NCBI GenBank assembly: GCA_044070495.1
Contig: JBIPSI010000020.1
Location: 43,122 to 107,121 of the forward strand
DNA: 64,000 nt
Direction: 5' to 3'
Source: Spirulina sp.
GTDB lineage: Bacteria; Cyanobacteriota; Cyanobacteriia; Phormidesmidales; Phormidesmidaceae
Below the pieces are notes generated by a model. It was not told where the DNA came from, made no database searches, and saw only the letters and a list, made by a program, of their open reading frames with translations. Each line of letters starts with the position of its first letter. The stretch's first letter is position 1. Both the position numbers and the translations under genes were made by a program. Of the stretch, positions 14,343 through 53,834 are shown one piece after another.

Positions 14343-15018
14343 GACAACGAGTTCGGATTTTCAGCGGAACTTAAACAACGGTTCACCCCATTGATGAAAG
14401 AAACGCAAGCTATTAGAGTACCTATCGAAGGTTTATTGCCGACTCTTCAAGACAGGCGCGATCACCCGTTTTTAGGTTTTTCTGCCACGCCCTGCATTTC
14501 TCTCAATGATAACCTCCTTCACAAATTCCTTACAAGTATCTTGCATAATCTTAAAGAAGAAAGTAGTTCACCTTTTAAGGGCAGATAATGTAAAGCTATA
14601 TAAACGCCATTGTCCTGATGGGTTCGATTGAGAAAAATAAATTTTGAATAAATTTCAGGTGTTTTGTAAGTCTCGTTAGATTCACACTTTTAGATCATCA
14701 CAGTTTTAGATCAATAGAGTTTGCATCCTATCATCAGGCAAGGTTAACAAAAATGAACATAGCATCAACCATAAAATCAAGATCTTTTCACATGTCTTGC
14801 CAGCGATGCAAATACTATCAACACCAAGGCAGACGGGGTGGGCAGTGTCATCGGCTCGATGTACCCGTTAAAGCCGATTGGCGTGCCTGTTCCTTAGCTA
14901 TTTCTGTATTTTTAGCCGCCTAGGATCGGTCTATTCTTCCTGATTGACTGGCAAAACTTGCCAGAACTGCCACAGGCTCAGGAAACTTAATCCCCTGATT
15001 GCCTGACACATCTTCTAT

Positions 15019-38873: not shown

Positions 38874-39113
38874 GTGCAACCAGGGTTTGCCGAGGCGGCC
38901 CAGGCCAAAGCCCAGGCCACTCCTCCGGTTGAGGTGGTCAAGCCCGTGGATGAGCGGGCCACGATGCGGGCCACGATGCGGGCCGACCTCCGCCAGTATT
39001 TGGACGTGCAGGCCCAGCACCCAGAGGCCATCATTCTCGTAAAGTCCCCGGATCTGCGGTTTTATAAGGCGTTTCTGGAGGGAGTTCAGCAAACGCTATC
39101 ATCATCGCCATAA
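38874..39113 (+). pseudogene. Possible gene fragment with a MutS-domain-I-like segment
   Basis: RQYLDVQAQHPEAIILVKS..RFYKAF resembles MutS-I (RQYLEIKAQHPDAILF..FYELF); no clear start. Confidence 0.3.
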
Positions 39114-39226
39114 ATTCCATCACAGCAAGCTCCTCAGACCCTCGCCTGAATTCTGCTTGCTGCTTTCCTTGTCGGACCAAATGGATAAAGTCGAGCTAAG
39201 ATAGTAGCGTCCGAAAATGCTCCAGA

Positions 39227-40315
39227 CTACTTGGCTGCAATAATATGAAGATCGACGCTAGGAAGCGCTCGCATGAGCCGCTGGACAATCGAGCCTTTTG
39301 TCAGCAGTTGCCAGCGTGATCGTTGGGTTTCTCCCAAAACAATTTGAGTGACATAATTGTTGGTCGCAATGTTGGCAATGGCTCTGACCACATCCTCAGA
39401 TTCTACCCGCAAAAACTCACCCTCAAATTCCTCACAGAGCCGTTTGCAAGTTTCGACATGAAGCGCTTCTACCTTAGACAAAAACTGATGGGGATGAGCG
39501 ACAAACAGCACATAAAAGCGACCATTCATTTGGCTTGCGATACGTGCCCCTCGCCGCAACAGTTGAATTGAACTGGGATTTGTTGAAACACATACCAAAA
39601 TGCATTCTTGGATATTGCAGTAATTCTGGGCGTTTTCCTCTCGGCCATTTTCTTCAATATTGTCGGCAACTTCTCTCAGGGCTAATTCTCGCAAAGCCAC
39701 CAGATTCTGGCGCTTAAAAAAGTTTTGCAAAGCCTGATCAATCTTTGTGGGAGCGTAGATTTTACCCTCCTGTAACCGCTCTTGCAACGTTTCAGGGGTG
39801 ACATCAATGACTACGACCTCATCGGCTTCGTCAATCAGGCGATCAGGCACTCGTTCTCGCACCACGACCCCAGAAATTTTGTGTACTAGATCATTCAAGC
39901 TCTCCAAATGTTGAATATTGATGGTGGAATACACATCAATCCCTGTATCTAAAATGAATTCCACATCTTGATAACGCTTTTCTCGTAGTGAACCAGGAAC
40001 ATTAGTATGGGCCAACTCATCAATAAGCACTAGGTGGGGGCAACGGTCGATAATACCCTGGACATCCATCTCCATCAGGCCACGTCCCTGCCAAAATGTC
40101 GGCTTCAGTGGGACTTGTTCTAGGCCATCAGCCTTTTCAGCAGTGTCGGCTCGTCCGTGGGTTTCTAATAAACCAATCACCACATCAAAGCCTTCCTGCT
40201 TAAGCTGCTGTCCTTCCTCCAGCATCCGGTAGGTTTTGCCCACCCCAGGAGCCATGCCGATAAAAATTTTGTGCTTGCCTCGGCGGGGAGGAGAGGGGGA
40301 TTGGGTGGGGGACAT
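39227..40315 (-). CDS. kdpD: Truncated KdpD (KdpD sensor + USP domain, no TM or kinase)
   Basis: GKHKIFIGMAPGVGKTYRML, LIDELAHTN, TINIQHLESLND, USP tail; start MSPTQS. Confidence 0.92.
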   Translation of the reverse strand: MSPTQSPSPPRRGKHKIFIGMAPGVGKTYRMLEEGQQLKQEGFDVVIGLLETHGRADTAEKADGLEQVPLKPTFWQGRGLMEMDVQGIIDRCPHLVLIDELAHTNVPGSLREKRYQDVEFILDTGIDVYSTINIQHLESLNDLVHKISGVVVRERVPDRLIDEADEVVVIDVTPETLQERLQEGKIYAPTKIDQALQNFFKRQNLVALRELALREVADNIEENGREENAQNYCNIQECILVCVSTNPSSIQLLRRGARIASQMNGRFYVLFVAHPHQFLSKVEALHVETCKRLCEEFEGEFLRVESEDVVRAIANIATNNYVTQIVLGETQRSRWQLLTKGSIVQRLMRALPSVDLHIIAAK

Positions 40316-40323
40316 GGGGGGGT

Positions 40324-40468
40324 GGAGGGTTGGGAGGTTGGGAGATTGGGAGGTTGGAGGGTTGGGAGGTTGGGAGGTTGGGAGGTTGGGAGGTTGGAAG
40401 GTTGGAAGGTTGGAAGGTTGGAGGGGTTGAGAGTTTGAGGGGTTGAACTTTCCAGCTTTCCCACCTTC
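40324..40468. repeat. Octamer tandem array (~15 GG(G/A)AGGTT units, then ~3 inverted units)
   Basis: Direct reading of the sequence between the kdpD start and the response-regulator stop. Confidence 0.9.
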
Positions 40469-41153
40469 AACCGTTGAATTGAGGACGGGTGTGGGGTTGG
40501 GTGGTGGCGCGGTGGAGGGTTTGTTGAGCGGGTGTGTAGGTGGGGTCGAGGTCGAGGGCGGCACGGTATTTTTTTAGGGCGTCGAGTCGGTTGCCGAGGT
40601 ATTCTTCAATTTCACCCAAGAGGGTTAGGGCTTCGGGGCGTTTTGGGTTGCAGCGCAGCGCCTCTTTCAAAAAGCCTGTGGCCTGGGAGTAATCTTGGCG
40701 ATTGAGGTAGTCTTGAGCGGTCTTAAGCAGGGTGTCGTAGTCCGCATCAAGCTTGGCCCAGGGGTGGGGACTTTCCAGGGTCTTACGGACAATGGATTGA
40801 ATGGTGCGGGCGCTGAAAGGCTTTTGCACATAGCCATGGGGTTCTTGAATAAAGTCCATAGCACCCGACTTCATGGCCTGTACGGCTTCATCAACGCTAC
40901 TGTGAACGGCGGTAACGATCACCCGCAAGCAGGGATAGTCGTGAAGTAGCTGCCGAATGATGTCCACATCCTCAGTCTGGGTAAGCATCGCATCTAAGAT
41001 CGCCACATCGATATGCTGATGAGCCAGAATTTCATTAGCAGCCTCAATGGTTTCTGCTTGGAGGACTTCGTAGTCAGCGGCAGTTAAAAACTGTGCCACG
41101 GTGCTGCGGGATATCTCGTCATGGTGAATAATCAGGATGGTGTTTTTTAGCAT
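40467..41153 (-). CDS. Response regulator, REC + TPR output
   Basis: VAILDAML, AVQAMKSGAMDF..QKPF receiver; TPR helices ALTLLGEI..ALKKYRAALDLDPTY. Confidence 0.85.
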   Translation of the reverse strand: MLKNTILIIHHDEISRSTVAQFLTAADYEVLQAETIEAANEILAHQHIDVAILDAMLTQTEDVDIIRQLLHDYPCLRVIVTAVHSSVDEAVQAMKSGAMDFIQEPHGYVQKPFSARTIQSIVRKTLESPHPWAKLDADYDTLLKTAQDYLNRQDYSQATGFLKEALRCNPKRPEALTLLGEIEEYLGNRLDALKKYRAALDLDPTYTPAQQTLHRATTQPHTRPQFNG

Positions 41154-41189
41154 GGGATTAGAGCGATGAGAACGTGAGAACGTGAGTAG

Positions 41190-41300
41190 GGGAGGTTGGG
41201 AGGTTGGGAGGTTAGAAGGTTAGAAGGTTGGGAGGTTAGAAGGTTGGGAGGTTGTAAAGGTTTAAGTCTCTAAAATTTTTCACTTTCAAATCTTCACACT
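41190..41300. repeat. Octamer tandem array (GGGAGGTT/AGAAGGTT x~8) with degenerate inverted tail
   Basis: Spacer between kdpC and the response regulator. Confidence 0.85.
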
Positions 41301-41325
41301 TACTAAAAATCCTCACACCTATATT

Positions 41326-41895
41326 TCAGCGGTTATCCAGCGCTAAATTTAGGGTCAAGACATTGATTCCGGGTTCACCAAAAATCCCTAGAAATCGACC
41401 GTCAGTGTTTTGAGCAATGAGTGATTGAACTTCGTCTACCGACAGCCCTCGTGCCTGAGCTACTCGCTCCACCTGGGCTTCGGCGGCGGCGGGGGAAATA
41501 TGTGGGTCAAGGCCAGAGCCAGAGGAATAAAGCAGATCGGCAGTGGGTTCCACTCCCTCACTGCGAAGGCGTTCAGCTTCTACTTTAATGCGCTCTAACA
41601 GTTCAGAATTATCGGGAGCTAGGTTGCTGCCACCGGATAGGCCCGTGGGATTCGCATCGCCCCCTTCGCTGTAGGCAATGACGCTGGGACGACTCCAGAA
41701 GTACTCATTGGTGGTGAAGGTTTGGCCAATCAATGCTGACCCCACGATTTCACCCTGGCTATTGGTTAGTAAGCTGCCGTTGGCCTGGTAGGGAAAAGCC
41801 GTTTGGCCGATGAGAAAAATTAGGAGTGGATAGAGAAATGCTGTCAAGAGCCAGAGGGTGGCAATACTGCGGATGCTGATGATGAGGTCTTGCAT
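41326..41895 (-). CDS. kdpC: K+-transporting ATPase subunit C
   Basis: FPYQANGSL, GSALIGQTF, YFWSRPS, SGSGLDPHIS, FGEPGINVLTLNLALD. Confidence 0.95.
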   Translation of the reverse strand: MQDLIISIRSIATLWLLTAFLYPLLIFLIGQTAFPYQANGSLLTNSQGEIVGSALIGQTFTTNEYFWSRPSVIAYSEGGDANPTGLSGGSNLAPDNSELLERIKVEAERLRSEGVEPTADLLYSSGSGLDPHISPAAAEAQVERVAQARGLSVDEVQSLIAQNTDGRFLGIFGEPGINVLTLNLALDNR

Positions 41896-41918
41896 GGGAA
41901 GTAAGGGGGTAGGGGTTT

Positions 41919-41958
41919 GAAGGTGTGAACGTGTCAACGTGTGAACGCTGGAACGTTG
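41919..41958. repeat. Degenerate octamer array (GAA(G/C)GT(G/T)T x5)
   Basis: gaaggtgt gaacgtgt caacgtgt gaacgctg gaacgttg. Confidence 0.7.
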
Positions 41959-41963
41959 GTTTT

Positions 41964-42155
41964 TTAAAACTTTTCGGGTTGGACGATCACTGCGGCTAAA
42001 TAGACAGCGAGACCCACGACAACGAGGCCGAGAAGACCGAGGGCATAGGCGGTGCCACGGGAGATATCTGGGCCGGTAGTGGCATGGAGAGCGGGTGCAA
42101 TCAAAGCGTTGATCAGCAAACCCAGCAGCAAAATTTTGGGGAGATTAGGTTTCAT
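41964..42155 (-). CDS. kdpF: KdpF/KdpG-like small membrane subunit
   Basis: Two hydrophobic segments ending AVYLAAVIVQPEKF (KdpF signature); lies between kdpB and kdpC like cyanobacterial kdpG. Confidence 0.8.
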   Translation of the reverse strand: MKPNLPKILLLGLLINALIAPALHATTGPDISRGTAYALGLLGLVVVGLAVYLAAVIVQPEKF

Positions 42156-42207
42156 AGGAAGAAAGGTTTTGTGATGGATGATGGATAGGGTTTAAGAATT
42201 AGATGTT

Positions 42208-42311
42208 GTCAGGTTAGAAGGTTGTCAGGTTAGAAGGTTGGAAGGTTGGAAGGTTAAAAACTTAGAAAACCTAAACCTTCACACGTTCCAACCTTCACAT
42301 GTTCCAACCCC
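42208..42311. repeat. Octamer array, forward (x6) and inverted (x4-5)
   Basis: gtcaggtt agaaggtt ... ggaaggtt, then aaccttca cacgttcc aaccttca catgttcc. Confidence 0.85.
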
Positions 42312-44402
42312 CTAAAAATTCGTTACCGCCGACACCCCCAAATCAATGACCTTAATGGCGACAAACGGGGCGATAATGCCGCCGAGGCCGTAGATCAAAA
42401 TGTTGCGCTGGAGCAATTGATTAGCAGTTAACGGACGAAATTCGATGCCTTTTAGGGCCAGGGGAATGAGGGCGGGGATGATAAGGGCGTTGTAGATTAG
42501 AGCCGAAAGTACGGCGGTGCGTGGGCTGCTGAGGCCCATCACATTTAGGGCACCGATGCCTGCCGATGCAAACATTGCAGGGATGATGGCAAAGTATTTG
42601 GCGATGTCGTTGGCTAGGGAGAAGGTGGTGAGGGCACCACGGGTGATCAATAACTGTTTGCCAATGGTGACCAGGTCGATCAGTTTGGTGGGATCGGAGT
42701 CGAGGTCTACCATGTTGGCGGCTTCTTTGGCGGCCTGGGTGCCGGAGTTCATGGCTACTCCGACGTTGGCTTGGGCTAAGGCGGGGGCATCGTTGGTGCC
42801 GTCCCCGGTCATGGCCACTAGCTTGCCTTGGGATTGTTCAGCCTGAATCACCTGAATTTTGTCCTCTGGGGTGGCCTCGGCCACAAAGTCGTCTACCCCG
42901 GCCTCTTCGGCAATCACGGAGGCGGTGATGCGGTTGTCTCCGGTTAGCATCACGGTGCGTACCCCCATGCGGCGCAGTTGGTCAAAGCGCTCTCGAATAC
43001 CCGGTTTGATGATGTCTTTGAGGTAAATAACGCCGTAGACATTGCTATTCCGGCAAACAGCCAGGGGGGTGCCGCCCAGGCGTGAAACTCGCTCGAAAGC
43101 TTGATCGAGTTCGGCAGGGGCGGTGCCGCCGCGTGAACGCACAAAGCCGCGAATGGCGTCCACAGATCCTTTACGCACTTCGCTGCCGTCGGGCAAATCG
43201 GTGCCACTCATGCGAGTGCGGGCGGTAAACTCCACGCCTTCGGCCTTGTCTTTGTTAAAAGAGATGGCGGCTCCCAACTTTTCGGCTAAGCGCACAATAG
43301 ATTTGCCCTCTGGGGTGGTGTCGAATACGCTGGCCGCCAAGGCGATGTCAGCCACCTCCTGCTCACTGTGGCCGTTGACCGGGATAAATTCTTCGGCCAG
43401 ACGGTTGCCTAGGGTGATGGTGCCAGTTTTGTCTAGCACCAGGGTGTTGATGTCGCCACAGGCTTCTACCGCTCGCCCGGAGGTAGCCACCACATTGAAC
43501 TGAGCGACCCGATCCATTCCGGCAATACCGATGGCACTGAGCAGCCCGCCAATAGTGGTAGGAATCAGCGCCACCAGTAGCGCCACCAAAATGGTGATAC
43601 CCACTGGACTATTGGCGTAGTTAGCGGGGGCGGGCAAAGTCGCCACCACAATTAAAAACACCAGGGTAAGCACCGCCAGCAGCACCGTCAGGGCAATTTC
43701 GTTGGGGGTTTTGCTGCGCTCGGCCCCTTCCACCAGGGCGATCATGCGGTCAATAAAGCCCTTGCCGGGGTCAGAGGTGACTTGCAAAATCAGCTCGTCG
43801 GAAATAATCCGGGTGCCGCCCGTCACCGAACTGGCCACGTCGGAACCAGGCTCCTTCAGCACCGGGGCCGACTCGCCCGTAATCGCCGACTCATCCACCG
43901 AGGCCACGCCTTCAATCACCTCACCATCGGCAGGAATCATGTCGCCAGCCACAACTTTGATACGATCCCCCCGCTTCAAGCTAGTCGAGTTCACCTCTTC
44001 TATCGCCCCATCAGCCCGCAACTTTCGAGCAACCGTATCCGAGCGGGTAGATCGCAGGGCATCCGCCTGGGCCTTACCGCGCCCTTCAGCCACGGCCTCC
44101 GCGAAGTTGGCAAACAGCACCGTCAACAACAAAATCAACGTAATTAGCCCGTTATAAACCGCTGCGCCGTCCCCATCGGTAGGGCCAAATAGGGTAGGGT
44201 TCACGGTCAACACAGCGGTGATCACCGTGCCGACCCAAACCACAAACATCACCGGATTTTTCACCATGATGCGTGGATCGAGCTTGCGAAAAGCTTCGAC
44301 CACAGCTCTTTGATAAAGGTCGGTCATCTTCGCCTTGGGGGTGTGCTTGCGCTGTTGGCGTGGCCCACCGGGTTGTTTGAGGGGGAGGGTAGATTGGGTC
44401 AT
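42312..44402 (-). CDS. kdpB: K+-transporting ATPase subunit B
   Basis: [28 protein letters not shown]. Confidence 0.97.
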
Positions 44403-44415
44403 GGATCGGGTAAGA

Positions 44416-44525
44416 GGAATGGTTGGATAATTGGAGAATTAGGAGGTGTGAAGGTTGGAAGGTTGGAAGGTGTGAAGGTTGGAAGGTTGGAAGGTGTGAA
44501 GGTTGGAAGGTTGGAAGGTTGAGAT
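44416..44525. repeat. Octamer array with higher-order 24-bp unit (GGTGTGAAGGTTGGAAGGTTGGAA x3)
   Basis: Between the kdpB start and the four-helix-bundle gene. Confidence 0.9.
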
Positions 44526-44564
44526 GTGGGAATACTCAGGGAGATATGTTTTTGGTTGATGCAG

Positions 44565-44936
44565 ATGGGTGCTATTCAGAGATTTGAAGATATCTTGGCT
44601 TGGCAGTCGGCGCGGGAGTTGACCAGGTTGGTTTATAGCCTGTCAAATACGGGGAGCTTTGCACGGGATTTTGGCTTGAAAGATCAAATGCGACGGGCGG
44701 CGGTTTCTGTGATGTCCAATATTGCAGAAGGGTTTGAAAGTCGAACTCGAGGCATGTTCATTAACTATTTAGGTCATGCCAAGGCTTCAGCAGGAGAAGT
44801 ACGTGCTCAAGCCTATGTGGCGTTGGATGTGGGCTACATTGACCAGACACAATTTGATCACCTAATAACGTTGGCAGAGCGGTGTAGCAAACAAGTTAGT
44901 CGGTTCATGGTGTATTTGGAGGGGAAAAAGGGGTGA
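44565..44936 (+). CDS. Four-helix-bundle protein (23S rRNA-IVP / Avd-like family), antisense within the kdp operon
   Basis: RFEDILAWQSAREL...FARDFGLKDQMRRAAVSVMSNIAEGFE...FINYLGHAKASAGEVRAQ. Confidence 0.92.
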   Translation: MGAIQRFEDILAWQSARELTRLVYSLSNTGSFARDFGLKDQMRRAAVSVMSNIAEGFESRTRGMFINYLGHAKASAGEVRAQAYVALDVGYIDQTQFDHLITLAERCSKQVSRFMVYLEGKKG

Positions 44937-45041
44937 GGGTGGGGAGGTGGGGAGGTTAAAAGGTGGAAAGGTTAAAAGGTGGAAAGGTTCAGAACTTGTC
45001 AACTTTCCAACCTTCCAACCTTCCAACTTTCCAACCTTCCC
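44937..45041. repeat. Octamer array, forward (x~6) and inverted (AAC(C/T)TTCC x5)
   Basis: Between the convergent four-helix-bundle and kdpA stops. Confidence 0.9.
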
Positions 45042-45042
45042 A

Positions 45043-46719
45043 CTACCCCAATCTAAACGCCGCTGCCACTGGCCCTAACGCTAAAACTGGCAGGAAGGTC
45101 AAGGCTCCGAGGATTAAAATGGCTCCGGCGGTGACTCCGGTGAACAGGGGGGTGTCGGTGCGGAGGGTGCCTGCGGTTTCGGGGACGGGTTGTTTGCGGG
45201 CCATGCCGTCGGCGAGGAAAATCAGGGCGGCAATGGGCACGTAGCGACCGACGAGGAGGGAGAAGCTGGTGCTGAGGTTCCACCAGAGGGTGTTGTCGCC
45301 TAACCCCTCAAAGCCGGAGCCGTTGTTGGCGGCAGCGGAGGCATATTCGTAGACTACCTGGGAAATGCCGTGGAAGCCGGGATTGCTGATGCCGGAGAGG
45401 GTTGCCGGGAAAGCTAGGGTGATGGCGGTGGGAATCAGGATGGCAATGGGGTGAACGAGCAGAATTAGGCTAGCGAGGACGATTTCGCGCTTTTCGATTT
45501 TGCGACCCAGAAATTCGGGAGTGCGCCCCACCATTAGCCCGGTGAGGAAGACGGTAAGAATCAGAAATACAAATAGGTAGGCGGTTCCGGTGCCCTGTCC
45601 ACCCCAAACGATCTGCAAAAACAGGTTAGAGAGGGTGACAAAGCCGCCTGTGGGCATCAGGGAATCGTGCAGACCGTTGATGGCTCCGCACATGGTGCCC
45701 GTGGTGGAAACGGCCCAAAGAGCGGTGAGGAAAGGCCCAAAGCGGGTTTCTTTACCCTCCAAATTGGGCTGTTGGCTGCCAAGCACCTGATTGACCAGCG
45801 GATTGCCCTGGTATTCACCCACGGCGGCAATGGCGATAAAGGCAACAAAGATGGCAAACACCATCCAGAAGATCAGCCAACCCTGTTTGGGATTGCTCGC
45901 CATGTAGCCGTAGGTGAGAATCAGTCCGGCGGGAATCACCAGCATGATCACGGTTTCGAGCAGGTTGGTAAAGTTGTTGGGGTTTTCAAAAGGGTGGGCG
46001 GAGTTGATACCAAAGAAGCCGCCGCCGTTTTCCCCCAATTCTTTGATGATTTCAAAGTGGGCTACTGGGCCACGGGCGATGAATTGGGTGGCTCCCTCCA
46101 GGGTAGTAGCCTGGGCGGGGGCTGCAAAGGTTTCGGGTACTCCGGCAATTAGCAGGGCAATTGCCCCCACGATTGAAATCGGCAGCAAAATGCGGGTAAT
46201 CGACACCATTAAATCGGTGTAGAAATTGCCTAGGGGTCGCCCCGTTAACCCACGAATAAAGGCAATCGCCACCGCAATGCCCGTCGCCGCCGAGGTAAAC
46301 ATCAGAAATCCCAACGCCCCCACCTGACTGAAATAGCTGTAGGTGGTTTCGCCGGAATAGTGCTGCTGGTTCGTATTCGTGGTAAACGAAATAGCCGTGT
46401 GCAGACCTAGATCCCAGCTTGGGGCACCTAGCTCTGTCGGATTTAGGGGCAGCACCCCCTGGAGCATAAAAATAACGTAGACCAACATGATCATGGCTAG
46501 GTTGCTGACCAGTACGGCACGAATATATTGACCACCAGTCATCGGACGGTTATCAAGTACGCCAGACCCAGAAAAAACGACTCGCTCCACCGGAGAAACA
46601 ATCCAATCCAGCCAGGTTTTTTCACCCAGAAAGACTTGGGCCATATAGCGCCCCAGTACAGGTGAAACCGCCGCCAAGATGACGAGTATCAAAGCTATCT
46701 GAAGAAATCCTTGTAGCAT
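45043..46719 (-). CDS. kdpA: K+-transporting ATPase subunit A
   Basis: [51 protein letters not shown]. Confidence 0.97.
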
Positions 46720-46776
46720 GGGATTGATAGATATAAAGCAACACAGACAGACACATCCAGAAGAAAACAGTCCCCG

Positions 46777-47019
46777 CTAATGCACTTTTTGCCTGAGCTT
46801 CAAGCAATTTCCTAGATGAGGAGAGATGGCAGGGTTGAGAGCAATGGCAATCAGACAATCACCATCTTCAACCACAGGATTCTGGTGAAAATGAATCAAC
46901 TGCTCTGCTCGAACTAAGCCTAGAAAATGACAACTATCCGGCAGACAAATTGCCCCCAGGGTTTTTCCAAGGTGTGCGCTGTGAAAATAAACCGTACCAG
47001 TAATCAACTTGGCCTTCAT
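46777..47019 (-). CDS. Small TrkA-C (RCK_C)-like protein leading the kdp operon
   Basis: LGKTLGAICLPDSCHFLGLVRAEQLI...VVEDGDCLIAIA fits the TrkA_C pattern. Confidence 0.6.
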   Translation of the reverse strand: MKAKLITGTVYFHSAHLGKTLGAICLPDSCHFLGLVRAEQLIHFHQNPVVEDGDCLIAIALNPAISPHLGNCLKLRQKVH

Positions 47020-47253
47020 GACGAGAGACTTTCCAAAAAAGAGCCATTCGATATCTCCATTTTGCTACTCTTTCACCTAAAAATAAGGTATAGAAAAGTG
47101 TTTAATCTAGATTTATACCCTCCATCTAAGCTCCAACTAGACATAGCGTTTAGGCAATGATTAAACTCCTATATCATTTGATATAAACGTCACCACTCCA
47201 CACCAAGTCAGCCCTAAAATAGATTGACAAAATCACCTCAACCAAACGCCCAT

Positions 47254-47306
47254 AACCTTCCAACCTTCCAACCTTCCACTCTCCCAACCCCCCACCTCCC
47301 TCCCCC
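47254..47306. repeat. Octamer array AACCTTCC x3 plus C-rich tail
   Basis: Immediately upstream of the sensor kinase ATG. Confidence 0.8.
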
Positions 47307-48416
47307 ATGCCCCGCCCCACCCCCCCCTGGCAACAAACCCACTGGCTGATTGCCGCCCTCTTTGTTGTGGTCATTGGGCTGGAATACAGCACACCACCGC
47401 CCTACGTATTTGGCTATCTGTACATTGGGGCGGTGCTTTTGGCCAGCGGACGACTGGGCCGAGGGGCAACACGGTGGGTAACGGCAATCGCCATTGTGCT
47501 CACCCTGCTCAACCTGGTGATCCCTGGCCTAGAGCCGATTAGTACGGTGACCATCGCCAATCGGGCGATTACGGTGCTAGCCCTGGCGGTGACGGGATGG
47601 CTGAGCGACCGCATTCAGCGCTACGAGAAGGCCATCACCCACCAGCACGCCCAAATCTTGGCCCAGGCCCAACTGGCTCGGATGCGGGAAGATTTTGTCT
47701 CGACCCTGACCCACGATTTGAAAACACCACTGCTGGGGGCGATAGAGACCCTCCACGCCCTGGAGACCGAGCAGTTTGGAGCAGTGACATCGGCCCAGCG
47801 GCGGGCCATCACGATCATGACGCGCAGTCACCAGACCACCCTGCAACTGGTGGAAACCCTGATGGATGTCTACCGCAACGACGCCGAGGGGTTACGCCTC
47901 AACCTGAGCGCTGTGGACGTCGTTTCCCTGGCAGAGGACACCATCATGCAACTCACGGCCCTAGCGGCTTCCCGGCAGGTGCATATTCGTCTACACCAAG
48001 GGGAATCCGACTTTCGCCAGCCCTGCTGGGTAAGGGCCGATGTGCTCCAGCTCCAGCGAGTGCTGAGCAACCTGATTGCCAACGCCATTCACCATTCGTT
48101 GCGGGGCAGTTTGGTGGAGGTCGTGATTCGCCATCACGGCGATGATTGTTTGGTGCAGGTATTGGATCAAGGCCAGGGCATCGCCGCCGATGAAATGGCC
48201 CACCTATTCGAGCGGTTTTACCAGGGCCACAGTGATCGTCAGGCCAAGGGTACCGGACTGGGCCTCTACCTCAGCCGTCAGATTGTGGAGGCCCACGGCG
48301 GCAGAATTTGGGCCGAACCGCGCCAGCCCACGGGGGCGGTGTTTGCGTTTCGACTGCCCGCTCAGTCCCCGGTACAGGATAATAGCCTGATGGTACGCAC
48401 TGCTAACCTCCGATGA
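47307..48416 (+). CDS. Membrane sensor histidine kinase, divergent from kdp
   Basis: N-terminal TMs; FVSTLTHDLKTPL, NLIANAI, DQGQGI, GTGLGL. Confidence 0.92.
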   Translation: MPRPTPPWQQTHWLIAALFVVVIGLEYSTPPPYVFGYLYIGAVLLASGRLGRGATRWVTAIAIVLTLLNLVIPGLEPISTVTIANRAITVLALAVTGWLSDRIQRYEKAITHQHAQILAQAQLARMREDFVSTLTHDLKTPLLGAIETLHALETEQFGAVTSAQRRAITIMTRSHQTTLQLVETLMDVYRNDAEGLRLNLSAVDVVSLAEDTIMQLTALAASRQVHIRLHQGESDFRQPCWVRADVLQLQRVLSNLIANAIHHSLRGSLVEVVIRHHGDDCLVQVLDQGQGIAADEMAHLFERFYQGHSDRQAKGTGLGLYLSRQIVEAHGGRIWAEPRQPTGAVFAFRLPAQSPVQDNSLMVRTANLR

Positions 48417-49081
48417 CCGACCAGCCTATTGATATTCTTCTGGTCGAAGACGATGAGCTGTTTCGACTGGGCCTTACCACTCGGTTGCAGCAGGAGCCGA
48501 CCTTGCAGGTTGTCGCTGAAGCGGAGGACGGCGAAACGGCCATCGCCCTAGTCAACCAGCAGCCCTTCGACGTGGTGCTGCTGGACATCGGCCTGCCGGG
48601 AATTGGCGGTCTCGAAGCCTGTCGCCAGATCAAGCAGCAGCATCCCAACTTGCCAGTGCTGGCCCTCACTTCCCACAACCAGCCAGCCCTGATTGCCCGC
48701 CTGATCGAAGCCCAGGCCCAGGGCTACTGTGTCAAGGGCATTGCCGCCGAGGCGCTGGTGCTGGCGATTCGCTCCGTTGCCCTGGGGGCTACCTGGTGGG
48801 ATGCCATCGCCTCCCAGGAAATTCAGGCTGCGTTCCAGTCCCCCGCCCTAGAATCGCCACCCACCCATACCCCGACCACCCTAGACACCCTCACTAAACG
48901 CGAGCAAGAAATCCTAGCGCTGATGGCGGTAGGGCAAAGCAATCAGGAAATTGCCGAGGCTCTCTACATTGCCCCCGGCACGGTGCGCGTCCATGTCCAC
49001 TCCATTTTGCAAAAGCTGGAGGTGCGTGATCGAACCCAGGCCGTCATTCTGGCGATGCAGATGGGTCTCGTTTCACCCTAG
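48413..49081 (+). CDS. NarL/LuxR-family response regulator
   Basis: LVEDDE, LLDIGLPG, LTKREQEILALMAVGQSNQEIAEAL. Confidence 0.92.
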   Translation: MTDQPIDILLVEDDELFRLGLTTRLQQEPTLQVVAEAEDGETAIALVNQQPFDVVLLDIGLPGIGGLEACRQIKQQHPNLPVLALTSHNQPALIARLIEAQAQGYCVKGIAAEALVLAIRSVALGATWWDAIASQEIQAAFQSPALESPPTHTPTTLDTLTKREQEILALMAVGQSNQEIAEALYIAPGTVRVHVHSILQKLEVRDRTQAVILAMQMGLVSP

Positions 49082-49486
49082 AAAAAGCCTGCGGCAATGA
49101 CTGATGATCGGAATCCTTCGGCCTAACGATGACTTAGACCAACCCCCACAACGTTGATTCCCCCTGATCATCCGCAGGGGCGTGCGCTTGGCTCCAGTCA
49201 ATAGGGCCTGACTAGATGGAGCCTGACTAAATAAAGCCTGGCAAGCTAGGCCAACCTAGGACTTTTATGGAGACTTGGTTAAGGCGAGATTGCCCTGCAT
49301 CAAGTTCTGTCCGTCGCTGCCCTAGATCAGCCTAGGGGTTTTCCCGGAGGTGTTAGGGTAATGTCGAGTTCTGGGGCCATCGCTAGGCCAGGGGATATTC
49401 CACCAAGCCTAGGGCAGCAATTGGCAATCTGGGACAACGTTATAAATGACCGCCATAGATACTGATATTGATACCTGTCACGTAAC

Positions 49487-50311
49487 GTGGATCTCCATCA
49501 GCTACACCAAGCCCTCCAACAACCTCCCGGCAGCCTCGGTGTTTTGCCGGAGTTTGCTGGATTGCGCCCCTGTTTCCAAGTCCAGTGGGTGAAGCAAACC
49601 GAATCCACCAATCACGATCTAATGGCCCAAATGGCGTCGGGGGCAGTGGCAGGAACCGTATTGATCGCGGCTACCCAGCGGGCCGGACGGGGGCAGTGGG
49701 GCCGCCAGTGGCAGTCGGCGGCGGGGGGGCTGTATCTCTCCCTAGGGCTGCGGCCAGAGATGACGGTGGAGCGCAGTCTCTATCTCACCCTGGCTAGCGC
49801 TTGGGGGCTGGCCACCAGCCTAGCCAACCTGGGTATTCCAGCTCAGGTGAAATGGCCCAACGATCTCGTGGTGCAGGGGCGCAAGCTGGGGGGCATTTTG
49901 ACCGATACACGGGTGCAGGGGGATCGGGTGCAGGCGGTGGTGGTCGGATTGGGGCTGAACGTCCAAAATCCAGTGCCGCCTACGGGAATTTCCCTAGGCC
50001 ACCTGTCAAAGTTGCCGGAACCGCCGCCCGGCCCCCTGAATACCTTGGAGGGCGTCGCCGCTGTAGCGCTCTACGGGCTGATGCAGGGCTACAGCGTTTG
50101 GCAAAACCAGGGCGATCAAGCTTTCCTGGCCCTCTATCAGCAGCGTATGACCCACCTGGGCCAGCCGGTGGTGATAGAGGACCAGTCGGCCACAGTAACG
50201 GGTCTTGCCCCTTCCGGGAACCTGTCGGTGCGGGTCTCGTCCGACGGTAGCTGTGCGCCCCTGGAATGGGAAATTAAGCCGGGCGAAGTAACTTTAGGCT
50301 ACAATGCGTAG
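49487..50311 (+). CDS. birA: Biotin-[acetyl-CoA-carboxylase] ligase
   Basis: STN, QRAGRGQWGRQW, KWPNDL, KLGGIL. Confidence 0.92.
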   Translation: MDLHQLHQALQQPPGSLGVLPEFAGLRPCFQVQWVKQTESTNHDLMAQMASGAVAGTVLIAATQRAGRGQWGRQWQSAAGGLYLSLGLRPEMTVERSLYLTLASAWGLATSLANLGIPAQVKWPNDLVVQGRKLGGILTDTRVQGDRVQAVVVGLGLNVQNPVPPTGISLGHLSKLPEPPPGPLNTLEGVAAVALYGLMQGYSVWQNQGDQAFLALYQQRMTHLGQPVVIEDQSATVTGLAPSGNLSVRVSSDGSCAPLEWEIKPGEVTLGYNA

Positions 50312-53782: not shown

Positions 53783-53834
53783 TGCCCTAAGGACTTGCCC
53801 TAAGGGCTTGCCCTAAGGGCTTGCACTAAGGTGT
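53783..53834. repeat. 13-bp tandem repeat x4 (TGCCCTAAGGGCT)
   Basis: Overlaps the stop codon of the serine hydrolase gene. Confidence 0.7.

Follow-up and report, generated by a model that had tools for sequence, protein, structure and literature searches.

Why the spacers of a single operon should be filled with short tandem repeats around one small antisense gene is the question raised by the kdp locus of Spirulina sp. (assembly GCA_044070495.1, here genome G000; 5.31 Mb, 56.7% GC). The window, by which we mean the whole stretch of 64,000 nucleotides analysed (contig JBIPSI010000020.1; G000:C20:43122-107121), carries this locus together with a gene of the 23S rRNA intervening-sequence protein family (PF05635), which lies between kdpB and kdpA and is flanked by arrays of eight-base units. 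A preliminary description of the window had proposed that protein and arrays form one system, either a local repeat-seeding mobile unit or a regulator acting on the kdp mRNA. The reading that we favour, with confidence and doubt about evenly balanced, is that the gene belongs to an old cassette resembling the intervening sequences (IVS) of rRNA genes, whose repeat arms have been copied and homogenised locally and whose protein probably binds the cognate repeat.

The four-helix-bundle gene and the octamer arrays

The gene amid the arrays encodes a four-helix-bundle protein, as had been supposed from the letters of the window: PF05635 is the sole family matching it (E 4.6e-31; 107.6 bits against a cut-off of 33.8), the TIGR02436 match has an E of 3.3e-29 (101.3 bits against a cut-off of 24), and the protein is related to PDB 2gsc (E 7.8e-12). 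It is read from the + strand, kdpB and kdpA on either side being on the - strand, and its start at 44565 was set by alignment with the copies of G005 and G053 (G labels denote genomes and L labels loci). The closest named homologues are those of the filamentous cyanobacteria Phormidium sp. FACHB-1136 (L080, 98%) and Nodosilinea nodulosa PCC 7104 (L086, 64%), and the closest non-cyanobacterial ones, about 55-66% identical, are mostly from Chloroflexota. Between G000 and G005, a hand count gave 18 synonymous changes in the gene against 3 replacements, and the protein is therefore maintained by purifying selection.

The cassette is built as forward array, gene, forward array and inverted array (Table 1), and its 5' arm (44444..44521), when read on the opposite strand, is the C-rich array ahead of the kdpB start. 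In the gene-sense RNA strand, the outer arms are paired in both the minimum free energy (MFE) and the centroid structures, giving a ~40-bp stem round the open reading frame (ORF; z -4.6); likewise, in the kdp-sense strand the MFE structure pairs the outer arms (z -5.9), the centroid retaining 10 pairs only (20 shuffles in each case). A scan of 44000-47400 for consensus promoters and terminators showed no excess over shuffles (2 against 2.2; 1 against 4.3), and a cassette with its own promoter or terminators was dropped; a known RNA family was also rejected, no Rfam match being found in 39000-49500. Between the 5' arm and the start codon, a GGGAA motif (44534-44538) is kept in all seven aligned cyanobacterial kdp-linked copies and is not evident in five aligned non-cyanobacterial copies.

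Tandem Repeats Finder detected period-8 (or 16/24) arrays in all seven kdp spacers named beforehand, and the octamer family common to them is AA(C/G)GT(T/G)NN. A degenerate 2.5-unit pattern, ASGTKDGRASGTKDGRASGT, searched with at most one mismatch, gave 35 matches in the 64 kb, all within 40335-47274, against a mean of 0.01 in shuffles, which excludes a chance origin. The unit GG(A/G)AGGTT, as given in the preliminary description, fails for the array at 41918 and for parts of those at 41167 and 42274, which consist of an older AACGT unit. In all seven spacers the polarity with respect to the host genes is uniform, G-rich arrays beginning at stop codons and C-rich arrays ending just before starts. 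The hairpins foreseen from forward and inverted blocks were borne out in two of the four spacers tested, 44934-45045 (-48 kcal/mol, z -4.6 against shuffles) and 42180-42315 (-41 kcal/mol, z -3.7), while no better-than-shuffle fold was obtained for 40318-40467 (z -1.5) and 41154-41300 (z -0.07). The G-rich unit contains GGAGGT, and mimicry of a Shine-Dalgarno sequence was treated as incidental, because the AACGT units of relatives lack this motif.

Presence and absence of the gene, array decay and unit turnover at the kdp locus

In the search for related kdp loci, kdpB was found in 16 of the 53 genomes of the genus. The four-helix-bundle gene stands at the kdpA-kdpB junction in G000, G005, G053 and G018 and in the further relatives L081, L082 and L130 (five of the 80 homologue loci of the gene carry the kdpB motif), and the same junction is empty in G046, G068, G015, G054, G003 and G048. 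For G009, G051 and G045, a PF05635 family search alone found no gene at the kdp junction, and G056, in which the sequence breaks inside kdpB, was left out. KdpB identities are 98, 94, 85 and 83-85% where the gene is present, and 91, 90, 85, 85, 84 and 82% where it is absent. These identities, together with the GGGAA motif common to the seven kdp-linked copies, point to a single old insertion at this junction followed by two or more losses, gain being told from loss by the identities alone.

The arrays decay where the gene is missing. When two-unit matches were counted on both strands of loci of 7.5-12.4 kb, with palindromic units counted twice, the kdp loci bearing the gene gave 17, 31, 22, 39, 38 and 4 matches, and those without it 2, 3, 6, 7, 6, 1, 0, 0 and 0. 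The arrays also turn over in concert. KdpB is 98% identical between G000 and G005, and the arrays before kdpB, the kinase gene, the receiver-TPR gene and kdpD differ between them in length and unit, these four spacers being mostly AACGTG-type or degenerate in G005 and AAGGTT in G000. The orphan sites of G000 lean to AAGGTT too, so that part of the unit shift is genome-wide. In G053, AACGTG-type units are found at eight sites, one of which splits the kinase-regulator junction; in G000, G005, G046 and G068 these two genes simply overlap or nearly do so.

Crowding of arrays around PF05635 genes

Across the G000 genome, 58 matches to the pattern RASGTKNN x2.6 were counted, grouped into 20 sites, and of these 27 matches and seven sites fall in the 7 kb of kdp. 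Against a background of 0.017 sites per 7 kb, the five sites beyond the gene's own arms are enriched about 300-fold, a figure that is post hoc because the pattern was derived from the kdp locus itself. A second count used a pattern of 3.6 units fixed beforehand, for which the gene's own arms give one or two sites each: where the gene is present, the sites in the kdp locus out of all sites were 2/2 in G005, 3/5 in G069, 4/6 in G070, 4/4 in G071, 6/32 in G053 and 4/15 in G000, and where it is absent, 0/0 in G046, 0/4 in G068, 1/1 in G015 and 1/4 in G054. In three distant relatives the majority of the long arrays sit in their own kdp locus.

The association extends beyond kdp. G000 has four PF05635 genes, the other three being 20-26% identical to the kdp-locus copy, and all four bear private arms of 7-9 bp, which in these three are GTTATTG/AACCAAT, AAAGTTC/TTTTGAA and a 9-base GAGGGTGAG type; in relatives, tandem families occur near 18 of 21 further PF05635 loci. 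In the cas locus of G000 (L076:5362-8081, G000:C1), a CRISPR locus with the order csc2 ... cas4, cas1, four-helix-bundle gene, cas2, cognate heptamer arrays occupy four successive spacers, one of them as a hairpin of 23 + 12 units. G068 has an antisense PF05635 gene mid-operon with heptamer arrays in five successive spacers, and likewise the hemB-znu-folE (zinc-uptake) operon of G024 has arrays of another unit around such a gene. Ten PF05635 loci, chosen for contig size, were compared with ten stretches 30-50 kb off on the same contigs, and arrays at a distance of over 600 bp from the gene were found in 7/10 neighbourhoods against 1/10 controls (6/9 if L163 and L168 count as one orthologous locus, and 2/10 controls if short palindromes in L174 are counted). 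The earlier interpretation is partly supported, and its proposal that protein and arrays form one system is supported by the arms at every PF05635 gene of G000, by the crowding and by the shrinkage of arrays without the gene.

Beside the PF05635 gene of L163 (2860-3700), cognate-like octamer arrays lie within an intact ABC-transporter ORF of 663 aa, and L168:2857-3728 looks orthologous to it by spacing. The paralogue with AAAGTTC arms (L004:1215-2180, G000:C16) seems to take the place of the central part of a transposase-like gene, whose frame stops after SNHVHYLIEP and whose downstream part picks up after the inverted arm; judged by its motif, this gene may be a Y1 transposase of the REP-associated tyrosine transposase (RAYT) kind, REP standing for repetitive extragenic palindromic.

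Units characteristic of each protein subfamily

The unit family of the arms goes with the protein subfamily, even across phyla. In a sample of 30 of the 75 non-kdp homologues (56-65% identical, mostly from Chloroflexota), period-8 arms of the AA(C/G)GTT or AAC(C/T)TT kind were found in 11, among them an Armatimonadota record (L127) with the window's own GTTGGAAG unit, and related period-7 arms (GGTTGAA, CAACCTT and similar) in 10, one further case being doubtful. Among the homologues of the cas paralogue (54-77% identical; 301 genomes searched), 16 of 17 loci have period-7 arms of a different family, and the octamer is found in none of the 17. That a fast-turning unit keeps its core across phyla suggests a constraint, for which recognition by the protein would be the most economical explanation. 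Judged from these sequences, the protein may recognize its cognate unit and so constrain the core of that unit; co-inheritance alone could also yield the match between subfamily and unit.

The arms of the cas-paralogue subfamily (L181-L197) include TTAGTCA, TTGTCAG and CAACAGT-type units, which resemble classic units of the cyanobacterial short tandemly repeated repetitive (STRR) sequences. STRR repeats are polarised short intergenic tandem repeats. Another PF05635 gene (L015:1858-1885) has an arm of the TAACTGA/CAACTGA kind, described by MacGregor (2015) without a cognate gene.

The host operon

The order on the minus strand is kdpA-kdpB-kdpF-kdpC-receiver/TPR-kdpD, with the kinase and regulator genes divergent, and in agreement with the preliminary description all the ORFs are intact (Table 1). 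The starts of kdpD (40315) and kdpC (41895) match those of relatives, the longer frames listed for them traversing arrays. Between kdpA and the kinase gene, an 80-aa frame (46777-47019) has a weak TrkA match (E 4.5e-4), and similar DNA is present in G053 and G068. Elsewhere in the window there are unrelated short tandem repeats at 14676-14722 (16 bp), 38954-38984 (12 bp) and 53783-53831 (13 bp).

Table 1. Coordinates of the cassette, the arrays and the host genes in the window, with the arrays as delimited by Tandem Repeats Finder (TRF).
Feature	Coordinates	Strand	TRF array	Remarks
Four-helix-bundle gene (PF05635 / TIGR02436; 23S rRNA intervening-sequence protein family)	44565..44936	+		123 aa; antisense to kdp operon
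5' arm of cassette	44444..44521	+	44444-44521	~9 copies of GAAGGTTG/GAAGGTGT
3' forward arm	44937..44989	+	44935-44989	G-rich octamers, same direction as 5' arm; begins at the gene's stop codon
3' inverted arm	45000..45040	+	45000-45040	CAACCTTC x5; reaches kdpA stop; pairs with either forward arm
Gene-less hairpin, kdpB/kdpF spacer	42205..42309		42205-42267 and 42274-42309	G-rich array, then C-rich array; fold in text
Single array, kdpF/kdpC spacer	41913..41956		41918-41956	Older AACGTG unit
Array ahead of receiver-TPR start	41167..41254		41167-41254	Short GAGAACGT run, then ~8 GGGAGGTT/AGAAGGTT; fold not significant
Longest array, receiver-TPR/kdpD spacer	40324..40466		40328-40445	14.6 units and short degenerate inverted arm; fills the spacer
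C-rich array (AACCTTCC)	47254..47300	+	47254-47300	Immediately ahead of divergent histidine kinase start
kdpA	45043..46719	-		Intact; profile matches
kdpB	42312..44402	-		Intact; profile matches
kdpF	41964..42155	-		Intact; profile match
kdpC	41326..41895	-		Intact; start set by comparison with relatives
Receiver-TPR gene	40467..41153	-		Between two arrays
kdpD, non-kinase form	39227..40315	-		KdpD and Usp domains
Histidine kinase (47307-48416) and NarL-type response regulator (48413-49081)	47307..49081	+		Overlap here

Discussion

Among known systems, the kdp cassette is closest to the IVS of rRNA genes, which in the sections of Warrier et al. (2016, PMC4990558) drawn on here have complementary ends, are excised by RNase III and contain an S23p ORF of unknown function preceded by tandem heptamers. 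Both elements share the protein family (PF05635; PDB 2gsc), an ORF within complementary stem ends and a patchy distribution, and tandem heptamers of variable number are reported upstream of the IVS ORF (PMC4990558, same sections). In contrast to an rRNA IVS, the cassette lies antisense in a protein-coding operon, outside rRNA, its arms are long octamer arrays accompanied by a third, forward array, there are gene-less copies in adjoining spacers, and its protein is under purifying selection, whereas the same part of PMC4990558 suggests reductive evolution. The stem of complementary ends is therefore present, and the location inside an rRNA gene is not.

The arrays themselves recall two groups of polarised heptamers, as presented in the portions of the papers used here: the orphan heptamers GGGAATC / GGGGA(C/T)T of Xanthomonas and Nostoc, which are polarised with respect to stops and starts and also form inverted pairs (Rehm et al. 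2015, PMC4692102), and the TAACTGA arrays of Beggiatoaceae and cyanobacteria, found before start codons by a mechanism that is not evident (MacGregor 2015, PMC4679880). These too are short tandem arrays between aligned genes, G-rich after a stop and on the non-coding strand before a start, often as inverted pairs, but the kdp arrays have a period of 8. Neither a link to PF05635 nor a crowding round one gene appears in those portions, where PMC4679880 makes no mention of 23S, IVP, Avd or intervening, and PMC4692102 none of xcc0516. No paper linking PF05635 genes to operon repeat arrays was found in the literature searched, subscription papers and supplements lying outside the search.

Three further classes were considered and rejected. 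REP sequences and their paired form, REPIN, are also intergenic inverted repeats of which each family lies near one cognate gene (PMC3116915, in the part consulted), but the arms of the cassette are tandem and of variable length rather than fixed palindromes, and the cognate gene encodes a four-helix bundle, with PF05635 matches only, and not a tyrosine transposase. Avd of diversity-generating retroelements is a homologous pentameric four-helix-bundle barrel that binds RNA (PMC10053308; bioRxiv 10.1101/2023.10.23.563531; both in part), and such a retroelement was excluded here since no reverse transcriptase is adjacent, PF00078 matches being found only on contigs C15 and C54. An insertion sequence or miniature inverted-repeat transposable element does not agree with one copy per genome, with paralogues as divergent as those described above or with ends that vary among close relatives. 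The kdp cassette is thus a PF05635 member resembling an IVS cassette transferred to an operon, and it belongs neither to the rRNA IVS nor to the diversity-generating retroelements, the REPINs or the insertion sequences.

Based on these observations, we hypothesize that a single ancient insertion placed the cassette at the kdpA-kdpB junction, from which it later disappeared in several lineages. As RNA of either strand, its outer arms are computed to close the ~40 bp stem round the gene, which is the layout of an rRNA IVS, and RNase III might cut this stem. The other six arrays would be copies of the arms lacking the gene, which short-range DNA copying would have seeded and homogenised over a few kb around the cassette, possibly through slippage for length and template switching or gene conversion between adjacent arrays for sequence, and they would survive only between genes, G-rich after stops and C-rich before starts. 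By analogy with Avd and its RNA, a probable ligand of the functional protein is its cognate repeat, in the form of RNA or single-stranded DNA; such binding would explain both the match of subfamily and unit and the erosion of arrays after gene loss. We infer a role of the protein in the arrays, a causation that runs from gene to arrays, the copying chemistry and any binding from the layout, the comparison of relatives and the analogy. Of the local repeat-seeding mobile unit proposed before, the seeding fits best, and the mobility does not, since one old insertion under purifying selection is not a freely mobile unit.

Several observations weigh against this reading. In G000, 13 of the 20 octamer sites are scattered far from the gene, so that the supposed confinement of the unit to the locus holds within the 64 kb and not for the genome, and in G053 the same is true of 26 of 32 sites. 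One gene-bearing locus, that of G018, has 4 two-unit matches and arms of other or mixed units. Gene-less loci retain remnants of two to three units at the same junctions, so that short arrays do persist in relatives lacking the gene, in partial agreement with one of the refuting observations named in the preliminary description, and a four-unit array ahead of kdpC has hardly changed among G015, G054 and G018, with G048 likewise retaining the array at this place, which suggests selection by the host, as it is kept without the gene. The kdp loci are not independent events because all are orthologous. No spread was seen in three of the ten PF05635 neighbourhoods, all three with AT-rich heptamer arms, and 8 of the 30 sampled homologues have no arms at the settings used. 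The nif cluster (L062, G000:C4:88500-102500) contains six or more arrays, which mix 7- and 8-base families and of which some lie inside a long nitrogenase-type ORF, and no PF05635 gene was found in this 14-kb stretch. The unit changed between G000 and G005 while the protein changed at three residues, so any recognition must be loose; moreover, profile searches found no recombinase or reverse transcriptase near the gene, and the four-helix-bundle protein has no known catalytic activity.

Some of these points would be accommodated if protein-independent, STRR-like arrays accumulated in certain operons and the cassette recombined in and out of them, the gene following the arrays, an explanation that we nevertheless consider rather unlikely. 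A deletion between two forward arms would produce just such a gene-less hairpin as the one at 42205-42309, an event that fits our favoured reading and this one alike. The receiver-TPR gene behaves likewise: it lies between kdpC and kdpD in G000, G005 and G068, its place in G018 and apparently L130 is between kdpB and kdpF, the kdpC-kdpD junction of G046, G053 and G056 lacks it, and its gains, losses and moves coincide with array-bearing junctions, the stretches compared including L053:7700-8400 and L130:2960-3100. The clustering of the nif arrays without the gene, the same stop/start polarity in the orphan heptamers (PMC4692102, portion as above) and the 279 genome-wide matches of G053 to a short self-complementary AACGTT octamer pattern, which are far above those of its relatives and point to a genome-wide expansion, also agree with it. 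However, it leaves unexplained why arrays shrink after gene loss, why a fast-changing unit keeps its core beside one subfamily across phyla, and why three distant genomes have most of their long arrays only around the gene.

The regulator of the kdp mRNA proposed earlier, in which the repeats serve the protein as binding sites along the polycistronic RNA, or the hairpins act as sites of RNase III cleavage or decay, and the ratio of the Kdp subunits is thereby set, has become weaker, and we regard it as unlikely. In its favor, the gene is under purifying selection and fixed at one junction across genera, distant relatives have arrays at the same junctions, the kdpC-leading array is conserved without the gene and two spacers form strong hairpins. 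On the other hand, unrelated operons show the same layout with other units, the paralogue loci thus weakening the case for a kdp-specific signal; the kdpA-kdpB pair is kept in all six gene-less junctions read; half of the four spacers folded gave no fold; and both unit and copy number vary freely among close relatives, the unit having changed against three residues of the protein. Orphan arrays also precede unrelated genes, two of the four orphan sites read having a C-rich array ahead of a co-oriented start and the other two being less clear. Finally, it is distinctly unlikely that the full cassette hopped locally into each spacer, the genes being deleted and the arms decaying passively, for although gene-less hairpins are shaped as the cassette minus its gene and two pairs of paralogues lie near each other in relatives (G018:C2, G053:C31), independent decay would not shift the unit in the same way at four spacers, no gene remnants were seen in the other spacers, and no second copy was found at another kdp junction of the seven gene-bearing loci (family search in G000, G005, G018 and G053, single-query search in the other three).

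A tentative extension of our favoured reading, to our mind rather improbable, is that PF05635 proteins are cis-acting repeat propagators, each subfamily having its 7-9-base word copied into nearby junctions, and that the polarised short tandem repeats of cyanobacteria and other bacteria are their footprints. The word of each subfamily would be recognized on nascent RNA or single-stranded DNA, and the family would amount to a repeat-spreading system that brings along neither a recombinase nor a polymerase.

The locus ties the PF05635 family to the long-unexplained short repeats of bacteria, rather than to potassium control, and so joins two old puzzles, a widespread family with a structure and no function, and intergenic tandem repeats of 7-8 bases of unknown origin. 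With the gene kept or lost at one junction across the genus and further relatives, it amounts to a natural experiment, in which a gain and homogenisation of arrays within ~5 kb of the gene is a measurable prediction. The candidate ligand is the cognate unit, in the forms (GGAAGGUU)n, (AACCUUCC)n and (GAACGUGU)n, for which the unit of another subfamily offers a control. Should the protein drive the copying, this would be a new way for bacteria to make repeats; should it not, the arrays would still mark the sites at which genes are gained and lost in operons.

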